Source of the DNA: a virus
Taxonomy: Duplodnaviria > Heunggongvirae > Uroviricota > Caudoviricetes
IMG/VR virus record: IMGVR_UViG_637000105_000002
Length of the DNA stretch: 62,656 bases
Reading direction: 5' to 3' (one strand)
The number at the start of each line of letters is the position of its first letter. Within the stretch, counting starts at the first letter, position 1. A program made the position numbers. This document shows positions 3,001-9,000 of this stretch, one piece after another.

Positions 3001-6000
3001 TCCATCGGAAGTGTGGCTGCTGCAATCTCCACATCCAGTGTGTCGAGGGTGTGTACTAAATTCGGATTGCGATCGGTTTTGTTCCCACCGCCAGCATTAG
3101 CACCGGAAGCCGTGCGGGTGATGCGTGAAACACGATTTCCTTTCATCCACTCTTTTGTCAGCAAACCCCGATCAGTGTAGTCAGCGTCTAGGTATGCTTC
3201 GAAAAAAGCAGTTATTAGTCCCAGGTCTGAATTACCAGGATTAGGGAAAACTTTGTCAGTGTCACGAACCAGTTTGTGGAGGTCGCGAATCTCCAGCGAG
3301 TCGAGCAGACTGGTTTTATGCGAAATAGCCAGGGCAGTAACAGCCGGTAGTTCTTCAGCCCGTGCAATGTGTAATGCCTGGAGTTCGTCGCGTGAAACGT
3401 GCGTTACTGGTTTTTCGCTGCCGTGTTGAGCAAGCCAACGAATGGGCAGTTCCTGACCGGAGACAGGCAGAAGCATGCTCTCCTCAATCTCAGTCATGGC
3501 TTCGCCGTTGATGTTGGTATTGTCAGTGCTGGCTGGTTTGTCCTGAACAGAGGGGGAAGGGCCGATAAATGTCATTGTGATGCCATCTTTCCCGCCTTTT
3601 TCATAGCGATTGCAGAATTCAGTATCAAACACGCCTTCTGGCGGAAGGTCGTCAACAACGGGCAAATTGACGCGGACGGGTTTTTTAAAGTCGTCTTCAT
3701 CATAATCGTTGTCATCCATTGCGGTAATGCAGCGGGAGATTGCAACAGATAATTTTTTTGCTGTAGTCCAGTAAAAACCACCTTTAATTCCTAGGCGTTT
3801 TCTTACTTTGTCATTTTTTGCTTCGCAATATAGTGCAAATTCTTCTTTATCAGTGCTCATTATTGGTAAACCTCATCACAGATTTAAGGGTGAACAAATC
3901 TCTGCCATTGCTGACATATAAGAATGAAACTGGATATTTATTACGGTGCTGTTTTAAAATCCTGCCGGGATTTCGTTATTATCCTGGTGAATAACTTTAT
4001 CGACCGGATAACAGTTGCCTGGAATTTTCTGTTCGGTTGCTGCTGCCATACATTCCTGCATTGTTCTGTGAACACTGACTGCAATATCAACTGGCTCTCC
4101 GGAAACAAGAAAAACCGTCAGAATAAGTGCAAATACTGGATTCATTGTGCACATCCTTTTGGCATCAGACGTAAACGGGCCAGCATTGAAACAATGCATA
4201 CTTTATTTAATAACTCCCGTTCGTGTTTTCTTTTGTTAATGGCCTCTTCAGTAAATACAGGATTACTGATAGTGACACCAATTTCAAAACAACCTTCAGA
4301 CGTATTAACGTTTGGTAATAACGTTTTCATTATCGCGCCCTCAACAATGAGTTTTGTGATGCGGTGCCTGGTGCCTCCAGGTGACGTTAACCAGTTAACA
4401 ATTAACGCCGGATACAGAGAATCCACCCATAACACTGTTTTTGGTTTTAACTGTTCCGCGTGCGCTTAGCCGCATTCACCGCATCACAAAATTCACTTTA
4501 AAAAGGGCGGCAGAGCAGTCACGGAGTAAAACTGATACCGCCAAACGTCACCAGAAAATTGATAACAGAGGGCGTTGCAGCGGGGTTGTCACTTAAGCGT
4601 ATGGTCAACCTGACAACCCGGTGTCCTCAACGGGGGAAGGAATAACCCCGCCATACTTACCGCCGCGCCATTTCGCGGATTGCCACAACCGGAAGCGCAC
4701 GGTCGACGAAAATTTAACGACAGGCTATCTATGAACCAGCTACCTCGCCGTGCGCTTTCGCGTTATGGTCTGACTTTTCAGGGAAATATCCTTTCAGTAA
4801 ACTGTCAGTGCCGGATGCTCACCCGTGTCCGGCGCACGCACTCCACCTCACCCGTGGAGAACTCCTTAATTACCAACCTTAGCTTCGTTGGTTATCTATT
4901 AACGCGGGTATGTAATCATTCTGGCAATGCTTAATGCCGCTGCTTTTTCCAGCCTGGTGATATCCTGCTCCAGAGCGGACAGATTTTCAGCCTGCTTAGC
5001 TCTGGCTTCATTAGCCCATTTCAGATCCTGCGCTGCATTAATTTTCTGGCGCATCCACTCATAAAGTTCATCATCGGTATAGTCTGGCGCGATGATGACG
5101 GGTTCTCGTTTCTGCATACTGATTCCTCGCGGTGCTGTTTCGCTTATCAGCCGTTAGATTTTGCCGAACTGGAAAGCGCCTGTTTAAATTCGTTGAAGCT
5201 GTGAGCTTCTTCGCCTTCGGCAAGGCCTTCGAAGTATTCTTCGTAAGCCTTTTCCATGATTGTGTCAAAATCCATATCACTCACCTGAGTTTCTTTCCAG
5301 CCAGCGACGGGCACCATTTTCGGTTTTAAACGTTTTGCTTTTTGTACACGTCAATGCGGTGAAGGTGCCGTCCTGGTTTGGAAACACGCCGTACACCAGA
5401 GATTCGTTGTTGCCAAGATCGATAGTATCCATGCTGACCTCATTTCCCCTTAACGCCGGGGTAGCGGAACAAAAACCTGCTGCATAGTTATTAAAGTTGA
5501 ACCCTGCCGTCATGTTCTTACGCCTCGGGCTGGCTACTTAACCCCTGACCACTGCCTGGTAACTCGAAGTATTGCCCTGCATTCTGTGGGGCGGGGTGGG
5601 TTGGTATGAAAAGAAGGATACCCATAGGTATTTAAAAAGTAAATACCCATGGGTAACTTTTTGCGGTGTCTTAACTGGTGACTAGTTGTTTGGTGAGCTA
5701 TGATGCGTTTTGTGCTTTCTTTTTACGGATTTCTTCGTAGATCATATTGTAATACTGTTTTTTCTCTTCAAGAGTTTTTAATAAGTTATCCGCTTCACTT
5801 TCTGGCAGTTCGTCTAAGAGATCTAAAAAAATACGTTGTCGTGGCGTTAGAACCCTTGTTTCATAACTGGAGGCTGTGTTCGTTGATGATGAAACGATAC
5901 CATCCATCCATCCCCGGGGTAACCCAAAGGACTCTTCGATAATCTCCACCATATCATCAGCGATCCGTTTTTTTCCCTTTTTCCCCTCTGGGTACAACAT

Positions 6001-9000
6001 TCTTGATACATAAGAAGGCTCGCGCCCGATCTTTCTGGCCACGTTAACCGCTTTACCATCGCATTTCTCATCACGAATTTTGATGAGTTGCTGTCGTCTA
6101 AATTCATATTTGTCCATAGGTAAATAATAGATGCGATTACTGCAAGGTAAACAACCTGTGGGTATTGACTTTTGTTTACCTGTGGGTATTCTTTGCTGTG
6201 TTTACTAAGGAGTAGCTATGGAAGAATTAAGAATATTTCTCAATTCTCTTTCGTCAGATGAACAGCGTATGTTTGCATGCGAGTGTGGTACCAGCATCGG
6301 TTATCTAAGAAAGGCATTGAGTAAAGGTCAAGTGTTAGGGGCATCGTTATGTGTCCTTATTGAGCGAGCCAGTAATGGTGAAGTTACACGTCAGCAACTA
6401 AGGCCTTTTGATTGGATGAATATTTGGCCCGAGCTGGAAGATACCAAAATGTTAACACAACCACTTTCTAGGAGCTTGATTCATGAAAATCAAGCATGAA
6501 CACATCCGCATGGCGATGAATGCCTGGGCGCATCCGGACGGTGAAAAAGTTCCGGCAGCTGAAATAACCAGGGCTTATTTTGAACTGGGTATGACGTTCC
6601 CAGAACTGTATGACGACAGCCATCCGGAAGCCCTGGCTCGCAATACCCAGAAAATTTTCCGCTGGGTAGAGAAAGACACCCCTGATGCAGTTGAAAAAAT
6701 TCAGGCGTTGTTACCAGCTATCGAAAAATCAATGCCACCTCTGCTGGTGGCCCGAATGCGCAGCCATAGCTCAGCCTATTTTCGGGAACTAGTGGAGACG
6801 CGGGAACGACTGGTGAGAGACGCTGATGATTTTGTCGCAGTGGCGATCGCTGGTTTCAACCAGATGAATCGTGGTGGCCCTGCAGGAAATATTGTGGCTG
6901 TGCATTGACTCGCAATATTCATACCGGATCACTTCCGGCAATTTGTGAGTAAAAAGATTCGGTATCAAAAGAGGTGAGTATGGCTAACGCCTGGCTCAGA
7001 TTATGGCATGACATGCCAAATGACCCTAAGTGGCGAACAATTGCCAGGGTGTCAGGGCAGCCAATTGCAACAGTGATGGCAGTGTATATCCACCTCCTGG
7101 TGAGCGCGTCACGAAATGTCACGCGAGGTCACATTGATGTCACGACAGAAGATTTGGCAAGTGCGCTCGACGTGACAGAAGAGGTAATTGATTCAATTTT
7201 GCAGACGATGCAGGGGCGGGTACTTGATGGTGATTTAATCACTGGATGGGAAAAACGCCAGGTGCTTAAAGAGGACAACGGCAATATTTCGCAAACCGCA
7301 AAATCTCCTGCAGAGCGCAAGAGGGCGCAGCGAGAGAGGGAAAGAAAGCGGGAACAAAATGGCGATTGTCACGGCGCGTCACGAAATGTCACGCACATGT
7401 CACGACGAGTCACGACAGATAAAGATACAGATACAGATCAAGAAGATCAAAACACTATGGTCCATGGCGTAAAAAACGCCACGAACCAGGCAGGGGATGT
7501 TCAGACCGTCAATCTTGGTCAGCCAGCAGGCACGACACCGGAAGCCGATTCAGCGTATGCGCTGAAAGCCGATTCGGGCGCTGTGCAGCAGGTGATGACC
7601 GCAAGGGCGGAGCAATCACACCAACTGCAGCAGCCTGAAGCCGATTCCGCCATTCAGCGGGAAGCCGATCGGGTAGTCCCGGAAAACACCGGGCAGTCTG
7701 TGGGACGAGTGGATTATCCGGATGTGTTCGAACAGGTCTGGCGGGAGTACCCGTTGCGTGCTGGGGCAAACCCGAAGAAATCCGCTTTCAGTGCCTGGAA
7801 GGCCAGATTACGCGAGGGGGTGCCGCCAGAGGCCATGCTGGATGGCGTGAGGCGTTACGCAAGATACTTGGCGGCTACCGGGAAAACGGGAACGGAATTT
7901 GTTCAGCGAGCGACGACGTTTTTTGGACCGGACCGGAATTTTGAGAACCCCTGGTTGCTCCCGGTAAGCGGCACGAACAACCAGCGTTGTGTGAATCATA
8001 TTTCTGAACCGGATAACGAAATTCCGCCGGGCTTCAGGGGGTAAGTGTTGATTTCTGGTCATGAGGTAATTTTCAGGAGGGCTTGTGGCAAAAGTTTTTA
8101 CACAAGAAGAGCGAGAAAAAATTAAAGGGCAGGTTGTTGAACTCGTACGCCAGAGTGGGCGTGAGACGTTACGGCAACTGGAAGTCAAGACAGGTGCGAC
8201 AAGATATCTGATGAGCGTTCTCGCAAGAGAGCTGGTTGCCAGCGGCGATGTATACAACTCCGGCTACGGGTTATTCCCCTCTGAACAGGCGCGTAAGGAC
8301 TGGCAAAACGCCCGCAAAAAACTCTCGAGGGCAAAGGTGAAGAAACCTGCTGTGGTTGATCCGGACCTTATCTGGTCATCACCTGACGGAGAAATACGTC
8401 GCTACGACAGTCGCCTAAACATAATCTGTCGCGAGTGCCGGAAGAGTGAAGCTATGCAGCGTGTACTGGCTTTCTATCAGGGTAATTTTCAGGAGGCGGT
8501 ACTGTGAGTGAAATTAGCTATCAGGCTTCAATTACCGCTGGCATTCGCATCAAAGGAGAGGAGCATGGAAATAAAACCAGAGGATGAGTTAAGCAATATC
8601 GTTTTATTTCCGGTAAAAGAGGATGACCCTCGTAATCAGGTTAATTTTCTTTATGAGCCATCGGAAAGACCATATTGTCATCACGCCTCTGTCCGGGTTG
8701 ACGAAAAAGAGCGTCAGGTCCGCTGTAAAATCTGCGGTGCAGTTGTGGAGCCATTTGACTGGATGCTCTCTGTGGCGAAAAGAGAAACCAGACTGGCAGA
8801 TGATGTAAGGCTCTTGCGTCAGGAGGAGCGGGAAAGGCGAAAAAATATAGAAAAGCTAATTCAGATTGAGCGTAACGCGAAAGCGCGGATACGCAGGGCG
8901 ACAAAATCCAGAACTGAATAATTAAATTTAGCTCTGTTAAAAATTTAATCCTTAACCGGAGGGATTTCTGCACCCTCAGAATATCAGGAGGCCGCCCGAA

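Follow-up and report, generated by a model that had tools for sequence, protein, structure and literature searches.

Short repressors that lack a cleavable S24 domain have already been described at the center of several prophage switches. In prophage CP-933P/Sp12 of Escherichia coli O157:H7, a small non-S24 CI analogue (PaaR2) is encoded divergently from a ydaS-ydaT operon, whose products are treated as Cro and CII analogues (PMC8630535, PMC9986795). In prophage Qin, carried by E. coli K-12, dicBp drives the ydfABC-DicF-dicB-ydfD operon, and DicA represses it through operators that flank dicA (PMC10448788), and the Gifsy prophages offer a further precedent for non-cleavable repressors (PMC3121763). 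Here we describe a locus of this kind in a 62,656-bp stretch of DNA from a member of the Caudoviricetes (IMG/VR record IMGVR_UViG_637000105_000002), hereafter called the window. Very probably, positions 5615-6908 constitute the immunity (lysis-lysogeny) region of a lambdoid prophage, in which a repressor of 139 amino acids (aa) is flanked by predicted rightward operators OR1-3 and leftward operators OL1-2 (Table 1). The 2-kb stretch around this region is 99.9% identical to a prophage of E. coli CFT073 and of many other strains.

What is said below about the sites and their conservation, about homologies, and about the lack of an S24 domain was established from sequence and comparison. The core ATACCCANNGG has exactly four matches in the window, at 5618 and 5643 on the plus strand and at 6155 and 6179 on the minus strand. 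In shuffled versions of the window the mean was 0.48 and the maximum two, and none of 100 shuffles reached four. A first-pass annotation of this DNA had placed two copies between the divergent genes and two downstream of the repressor gene, with one copy being a perfect palindrome. All four are found there, and the palindrome is TACCCATGGGTA, which covers 12 bp at 5644-5655. The divergent gene pair, including the repressor open reading frame (ORF) at 5698-6117 on the minus strand, is also as described, according to the ORF listing. The full repeat unit is a 14-bp pseudo-palindrome, WTACC-N4-GGTAW, which is matched perfectly in the window only at 5618, 5643, and 6176.

Five sites in the window match the 14-bp unit with one mismatch. 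Among them is 6137-6150, which lies 1 bp from the site at 6152-6165. The earlier count of two OR copies is one short, since this third, weaker site (OR3) had been missed. The three 14-bp sites at 6137-6189 overlap both promoters found by scanning and lie between the divergent repressor and cro genes. OR1 and OR2 are 24 bp apart from center to center, compared with 25 bp for OL1 and OL2. The downstream repeats are no anomaly. We interpret them as the putative OL/PL control region of a leftward early operon, as in lambda, CP-933P, and Qin, starting 42 bp past the repressor stop codon.

A comparative analysis was made of phage mEp043 and 26 genome loci recovered by a genome scan for the repressor family, with up to one mismatch allowed in the 14-mer. 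The loci range from Yersinia, Edwardsiella, Klebsiella, Pantoea, Brenneria, Arsenophonus, and Aeromonas to Paraburkholderia, Herbaspirillum, Alcaligenes, and Stenotrophomonas, and therefore span the Enterobacterales to the Burkholderiales and Xanthomonadales. All 26, as well as mEp043, encode the same MDKYExRR...SYVSRMLY DNA-binding domain. The 14-mer is located 59-63 bp before the repressor ATG in 24 of the 26 loci, 35-38 bp before it in 12, and 20-23 bp before it in 21. OR3 of the window, at 19 bp, corresponds to the last of these positions, as in mEp043. Downstream of the repressor gene, at distances of 93-1900 bp, a pair of 14-mers with a spacing of 24-26 bp is present in 18 of the 26 loci and in mEp043 (19/27).

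Phage mEp043 carries the same three OR sites and two OL sites, and its OR aligns with that of the window over all three; a literature search for mEp043 operators returned nothing. Because the site positions are kept in the 26 loci and mEp043, the motif goes along with the DNA-binding domain, both where this is followed by S24 and where it has a short tail. These shared positions of OR1, OR2, OR3, OL1, and OL2 provide the strongest evidence that the repeats are the operators of the repressor. The proposal that operator repeats lie on both sides of the repressor gene is thus backed by the sequence and by the comparison of related loci.

The predicted promoters are arranged around these sites. 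The GTCAA adjoining OR2, within PR, is conserved across related loci. The -10 hexamer of PRM ends 6 nt before the repressor ATG and there is no Shine-Dalgarno sequence, so the repressor mRNA is probably leaderless. A -10-like hexamer 6-7 nt before the repressor ATG recurs in related loci, and leaderless repressor mRNAs have been demonstrated experimentally for lambda cI and PaaR2 (PMC8630535). On the left, the hexamers of the putative PL are placed with respect to OL1 and OL2 in the same way as those of PR with respect to OR1 and OR2, and the hexamers at equivalent positions in related loci are stronger (TTGAC.., TATATT). A second set of candidate operators therefore appears to overlap the leftward early promoter, in the lambdoid manner.

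A different role can be imagined for the downstream pair (5618-5656). It might be mainly an intrinsic terminator of the PRM transcript that shields the toxic dicBF operon from read-through and contains no operators or, in a weaker version, it might do both jobs. In the scan, the minus strand from 5655 to 5619, which is the repressor-sense strand, forms a 16-pair stem with a 5-nt loop, followed by the T-rich tail TCCTTCTTTT. The RNA fold of 5600-5700 on this strand has an energy of -24.1 kcal/mol (z = -4.3) that is equaled by 0 of 200 shuffles, and no other terminator was found between the repressor stop (5698) and PL. However, any two palindromic operators 25 bp apart will give rise to such a hairpin, and this one has only 5 G-C pairs in its stem and a tail that starts UCC. 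Most related loci lack the T-rich tail. Moreover, the pair stands anywhere from 93 to 1900 bp from the repressor gene in other loci, with the -35 and -10 hexamers always in register. We therefore judge the terminator explanation to be quite unlikely and favor the assignment of the pair as OL1 and OL2.

The repressor itself joins parts of two known protein types. Over its first 75-90 residues it shares 65-80% identity with the N-terminal domains of dozens of repressors of 221-242 aa that carry an S24 domain (PF00717), and a smaller set of proteins of 133-150 aa from the same database search matches it over the whole length. The best phage match is mEp043 cI, with 65% identity over residues 1-86 (86 aa) and an identical segment, REPSYVSRMLYPEGK, of the recognition helix. 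In contrast, its C-terminal ~50 residues resemble residues 84-129 of DicA (BLASTP, E=1e-7), and the similarity of the C-terminal domain to DicA is also detected by hhalign (96.6%, E=5.6e-10, 53 columns). When the C-terminal 56 aa were used by themselves as a database query, all matches were fragments of the same protein. In the AlphaFold model (mean pLDDT 82), residues 3-63 form a helical helix-turn-helix (HTH) domain, residues 76-87 a low-confidence linker, and residues 92-102 and 106-137 one helix each. PDB sequence searches with the repressor and with its family profile gave nothing significant. A fold search was informative where these were not, and its closest structure is a repressor solved in complex with its antirepressor.

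No trace of an S24 or LexA-like cleavage domain was found in this protein, in keeping with the first-pass annotation. The Pfam scan yielded no match at all, and hence no S24 domain; the translation contains no Ala-Gly dipeptide; the protein is only 139 aa long; and its C-terminal domain is modeled as two helices. Its PHROG match is phrog_5736, “transcriptional regulator.” On the basis of these homologies, the repressor is a natural chimera, in which a DNA-binding domain of the mEp043 cI type is joined to a DicA-type helical C-terminal domain that replaces S24. It has the length (~135-150 aa), the N-terminal HTH, and the DicA-homologous C-terminal domain of DicA-type repressors, to which the Gifsy repressors are likened by description.

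Two further observations concern this gene. Some E. coli genomes encode a repressor variant (proteins P0012 and P0018) whose N-terminus is read in the other frame (window 5847-6107, minus strand) and whose C-terminal part is unchanged; these variants appear to be frameshifted repressor alleles. A “pr” phage repressor of strain Nissle 1917 (PMC5987069) was considered as a possible counterpart and set aside, since its primers do not match the window and it must be a different gene.

The repressor had also been described as RacR-like, which is justified by position and not by homology. A short repressor gene stands divergent from ydaS-ydaT, as in Rac, but BLASTP against K-12 RacR gives only E=2.3, and when the family profile is aligned with RacR by hhalign, the probability is 0.15%. 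We therefore reject homology, and RacR is only a positional analogue of the repressor.

The rightward genes encode relatives of YdaS and YdaT, as had been proposed. YdaT exceeds its Pfam cutoff (Table 1), is 100% identical to PDB 3C4R, is ~85% identical to 8BT1 (the CP-933P YdaT structure), and is 33% identical to K-12 YdaT over its full length. The YdaS-like protein scores 25.8 bits against Pfam YdaS_toxin (PF15943), for which the cutoff is 30, and its similarity to K-12 YdaS is confined to 28 residues. It does match phrog_35 (1e-22) and PDB 8C7K and 8CO2, which are named “Cro” (E ~1e-10 over 72 residues). It is 73% identical to mEp043 Cro, and a homologue is divergently encoded beside the repressor in 22 of the 26 related loci. 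From these relationships, the YdaS-like protein is assigned as the cognate Cro of this immunity group. For YdaT of CP-933P, footprinting shows binding to TTGATT-N6-AATCAA at the ydaS end, which controls a PRE-like promoter (PMC9986795; PMC8630535). The predicted box of the window, TTGATTCATGAAAATCAA, is the sole exact match to this motif.

The view of YdaS and YdaT as a toxic pair has been overtaken by the Cro/CII interpretation from CP-933P (PMC8630535, PMC9986795). Taken further, it would make the locus a toxin-antitoxin or addiction module of the RacR/YdaS/YdaT type, in which the repressor is essential as the silencer of two toxins and there is no phage developmental switch. The Pfam family names, “YdaS_toxin” and “YdaT_toxin,” point this way, and RacR depletion in K-12 is reported to be lethal via ydaS and ydaT (PMC5700373, PMC5700377). 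However, the repressor is unrelated to RacR, and the YdaS-like protein is 73% identical to the Cro of mEp043, a plaque-forming phage. In addition, the CP-933P relative of YdaT is a DNA-binding activator and is not toxic (PMC8630535, PMC9986795). Genes for integration, replication, lysis, heads, and tails are all represented in the surrounding prophage, and toxicity upon derepression is to be expected anyhow from DicB, DicF, and the lytic genes. An addiction module is therefore very improbable, and the lysis-lysogeny switch is retained as the function of the locus.

Each of the described systems shares some parts with this switch and lacks others. Besides the divergent arrangement, CP-933P, for which OR, OL, PL, and PRE have been described, has in common with it operators at OR and OL, a PL promoter, and a leaderless repressor mRNA (all putative here), as well as the YdaT box at the ydaS 3' end and a YdaT that is ~85% identical. 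However, the operators of CP-933P are GTTTAGTAA-type repeats, whereas those proposed here are WTACC-N4-GGTAW, and its repressor gene is followed by paaA2-parE2 toxin-antitoxin genes, none of which stand behind the repressor here. Among the repressor relatives listed there is no entry named PaaR2, a distinction made by name and not by sequence.

Qin is similar in having a short, non-cleavable repressor (DicA, 135 aa) with a homologous C-terminal domain, and in having operators on both sides of the repressor gene, with the downstream set controlling the same ydfABC-DicF-dicB-ydfD operon. It differs in that the DNA-binding domain of DicA is P22 C2-like and uses other operators, that DicC takes the place of a YdaS-type Cro, that there is no YdaT, and that it has a gene for the antirepressor Rem, of which this window holds no homologue. 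Rac has the same gene order and orientation, a repressor that is likewise short and without S24, a YdaT that is 33% identical, and a DUF1391 gene on the left (ydaF in Rac, ydfA here). However, RacR has no detectable similarity to the repressor, the similarity of YdaS is limited to 28 residues, and kilR and sieB are found instead of dicBF.

Phage mEp043 shares the specificity elements, including the DNA-binding domain of the repressor (65% identity), Cro (73%), and the operator motif and spacing. In contrast, its cI is 228 aa, a length at which relatives carry S24 (PF00717), and annotated cII and N antiterminator genes stand where YdaT and the dicBF operon are found here. The reverse is true of phage Tritos (OV696610), whose backbone around the switch is nearly the same. 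Its 139-aa CI has a C-terminal domain that is 72% identical, its YdaT is 97% identical with the same box, and it has the same PL leader, ydfABC, DicF, and dicB. Its DNA-binding domain, its GTAC-rich repeat operators, and its annotated Cro (no match to the window Cro) are different, which places Tritos in another immunity group. Exchange relative to Tritos is bounded at one end by the repressor linker and at the other by a point just left of the YdaT box. A PL leader that is near-identical in the two (CCACCCCGCCCCACAGAATGCAGGGCAATACTTCGAG...) is found at 3380-3460 in Tritos (L004 numbering) and at 5560-5615 in the window, in each case just downstream of unrelated operator sets. Because this shared leader adjoins unrelated operators, the immunity cassette has a sharp recombination boundary here. 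The element is thus a mosaic of CP-933P-like logic, a Qin-like C-terminal domain and PL operon, the mEp043 specificity module, and the Tritos backbone.

The suggestion that induction might not be based on RecA autocleavage is borne out by the domain content of the repressor. Because there is no S24 domain, and in the absence also of Ala-Gly, RecA-stimulated autocleavage cannot inactivate this protein. An antirepressor of some kind is the most likely route of inactivation. Alternatively, the switch might be thrown by spontaneous Cro-driven switching, as reported for Qin and CP-933P.

Induction could still be coupled to the SOS response if the antirepressor were under LexA control, whether it came from this prophage (for example, from a Rha/Ant-like gene) or from another in the strain. 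The C-terminal domain is homologous to that of DicA, which is relieved by the antirepressor Rem (PMC10448788), and the short non-cleavable Gifsy repressors are inactivated by antirepressors under LexA control, which can also work in trans (PMC3121763). The window has a Rha/Ant-like ORF at 18792-19316, and the closest structural match to the repressor is, as noted, a repressor bound to its antirepressor. However, there is no LexA box upstream of the Rha-like gene nor a credible one anywhere in the window, no Rem homologue is encoded in the window, and Qin can be derepressed spontaneously without RecA or Rem. SOS coupling through an antirepressor is accordingly a tentative proposal, to which we give somewhat less than even weight. 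A 92-aa ORF (10902-11180; phrog_1212, function unknown) occupies the position of Qin rem, between hokD and a ydfU-like DUF968 gene; it was rejected as Rem because it has no similarity to that protein. A literature search on the induction of CFT073 prophages returned nothing specific to this one.

Several points weigh against interpreting the locus as a working lambdoid switch. OR2 and OR3 are imperfect sites, and PL matches only 8 of 12 consensus positions, which is below the threshold of the promoter scan. The hairpin formed by the OL pair, with its T-rich tail, might give the pair a second, minor and additional role as a terminator. No cognate antirepressor was found, and tblastn of Rem against the window yielded nothing. 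An exact CTGT-N8-ACAG search of the window gave one match, within a tail gene and at chance level; the 20-bp LexA consensus with up to three mismatches had no match in the window; and a relaxed CTG-N10-CAG scan of the window gave nothing convincing, with the best site (10018) reading CTGG for CTGT. The prophage annotation contains no dinI-type module. An IS200 element just after the Q gene, together with a frameshifted gene, means that the prophage may not be fully inducible. Finally, that the repressor binds, that the promoters are active, and that the message starts without a leader is deduced from layout and homology, as are activation, looping, and the induction route.

Given this layout, the switch would operate as follows. 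A dimer of the repressor would bind the 14-bp pseudo-palindromes. In the lysogen, occupancy of OR1 and OR2 would shut PR, keeping cro, ydaT, and replication off, and occupancy of OL1 and OL2 would shut PL, keeping off the division inhibitors DicB and DicF, recombination genes, exo, xis, and int. OR2 is placed beside the PRM -35 such that it could mediate self-activation, and OR3 is placed over PRM such that it could mediate self-repression once repressor levels are high. Dimerization and cooperativity would come from the helical C-terminal domain, which might also allow OL-OR looping over ~530 bp. In a newly infected cell, YdaT would act at its TTGATT-N6-AATCAA box at the cro/ydaT junction to drive a leftward PRE-like transcript, leading to repressor synthesis, and Cro would oppose the establishment of repression at the same operators.

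Table 1. Predicted features of the immunity region and associated genes (positions in the window)
Feature	Coordinates	Strand	Description and basis
Repressor, 139 aa	5698-6117	-	DNA-binding domain ~1-74, disordered linker ~75-88, helical DicA-type C-terminal domain ~89-139
OL1 operator (predicted)	5618-5631		ATACCCATAGGTAT; perfect 14-mer; last three bases overlap PL -10
OL2 operator (predicted)	5643-5656		ATACCCATGGGTAA; perfect 12-bp palindromic core; abuts PL -35; 25 bp from OL1
OR3 operator (predicted, weak)	6137-6150		TTACTGCAAGGTAA; one mismatch; covers PRM -35 and spacer; 19 bp from ATG
OR2 operator (predicted)	6152-6165		CAACCTGTGGGTAT; abuts PRM -35; touches PR -35
OR1 operator (predicted)	6176-6189		TTACCTGTGGGTAT; in PR spacer, overlapping PR -10
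PR (predicted)	6165-6192	+	TTGACT, 16-bp spacer, TATTCT; promoter scan
PRM (putative)	6124-6151	-	TTTACC, 16-bp spacer, TATTAT; promoter scan; -35 within OR3
PL (putative)	5615-5643	-	-35 TTTACT (5643-5638), 17-bp spacer with OL1, -10 TATCCT (5620-5615)
Cro analogue (“YdaS-like”), 93 aa	6218-6499	+	phrog_35, PDB 8C7K/8CO2, mEp043 Cro
YdaT, CII analogue, 141 aa	6483-6908	+	Pfam YdaT_toxin (PF06254), 38.2 bits, cutoff 21
YdaT binding box (predicted)	6476-6493		Spans the ydaT start codon at the cro 3' end; sole exact match in window
Leftward early operon under PL (putative)	3954-5432	-	RefSeq annotation of CFT073 prophage; PHROG and Pfam matches
ydfA (DUF1391)	5277-5432	-	
ydfB	5147-5275	-	
ydfC	4899-5117	-	
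DicF small RNA	4505-4556	-	Rfam, 76.7 bits
dicB	4142-4330	-	
ydfD	3954-4145	-	
Rha/Ant-like protein, 174 aa	18792-19316	+	phrog_518 Rha-like (1e-77) and several “anti-repressor” PHROGs; tentative, only antirepressor candidate in prophage

No new principle emerges from this locus, as its architecture is that of lambda, CP-933P, and Qin. What is new is the assignment of a very common “hypothetical” repressor and its candidate operators, along with the occurrence of one DNA-binding/operator/Cro module with either an S24 or a DicA-type C-terminal domain. Of 5426 complete E. coli genomes, 821 (~15%), CFT073 among them, carry the 621-bp immunity cassette (5600-6220), and in RefSeq and these genomes the repressor is labeled “hypothetical protein.” The resulting map of repressor, five operators, three promoters, Cro, CII analogue, and YdaT box is ready for reporter constructs, and the assignment of operators and repressor helps to predict the phage immunity of carrier strains. 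The switch would also control the division inhibitors DicB and DicF. Furthermore, the domain swap, in which the same DNA-binding domain occurs either with S24 or without it, offers a clear case from nature of modular exchange between DNA specificity and induction mode.

The S24-bearing form of the module is found in mEp043-type phages and in many enterobacterial prophages. Because the recognition helix is identical in both forms, and the non-cleavable form is so widespread among E. coli genomes, this repressor could keep co-immune S24-type phages repressed during SOS. It would then serve as an SOS-blind immunity shield, or anti-induction factor, with its own induction left to some other, possibly non-SOS, signal. 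We regard this scenario, with the secondary possibility that the OL pair doubles as the terminator of the repressor transcript, as unlikely.

The prophage is inserted between potC and potB according to the RefSeq annotation of CFT073. Its left arm carries integrase, excisionase, and exonuclease genes, followed by ydfD-dicB-ydfC-ydfB-ydfA, and its right arm carries replication genes, hokD, RusA, the Q antiterminator, and lysis, head, and tail genes. The annotation also includes the frameshifted gene mentioned above. Within the replication-initiator gene (6974-8044), GTCACG-type direct repeats ~10 bp apart form two clusters (7108-7146 and 7368-7416) that look like origin iterons, as in lambda O. 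Farther right, in a nin-like region, is a hok/sok-type type I toxin-antitoxin locus (sok RNA and hokD, 10119-10443), where Qin has relBE-hokD-rem at the counterpart position.

The IS200-family element consists of STnc490 (13554-13677) and an adjoining tnpA (~13.7-14.2 kb), and lies between the Q gene on one side and the tRNA cluster and late genes on the other, where it might prevent late transcription and thereby render the prophage defective. Downstream of the Q gene are three phage tRNA genes (Ile, Arg, and Arg in the CFT073 annotation) and the small RNA STnc100 (14291-14537 and 15237-15426). Past potB-potA-pepT-roxA, a second mobile element at ~49.9-62.6 kb encodes an integrase, a small HTH regulator, an Icd-like division inhibitor, and a DNA primase, and from its annotation it resembles a P4-like or PICI-like (phage-inducible chromosomal island) satellite.

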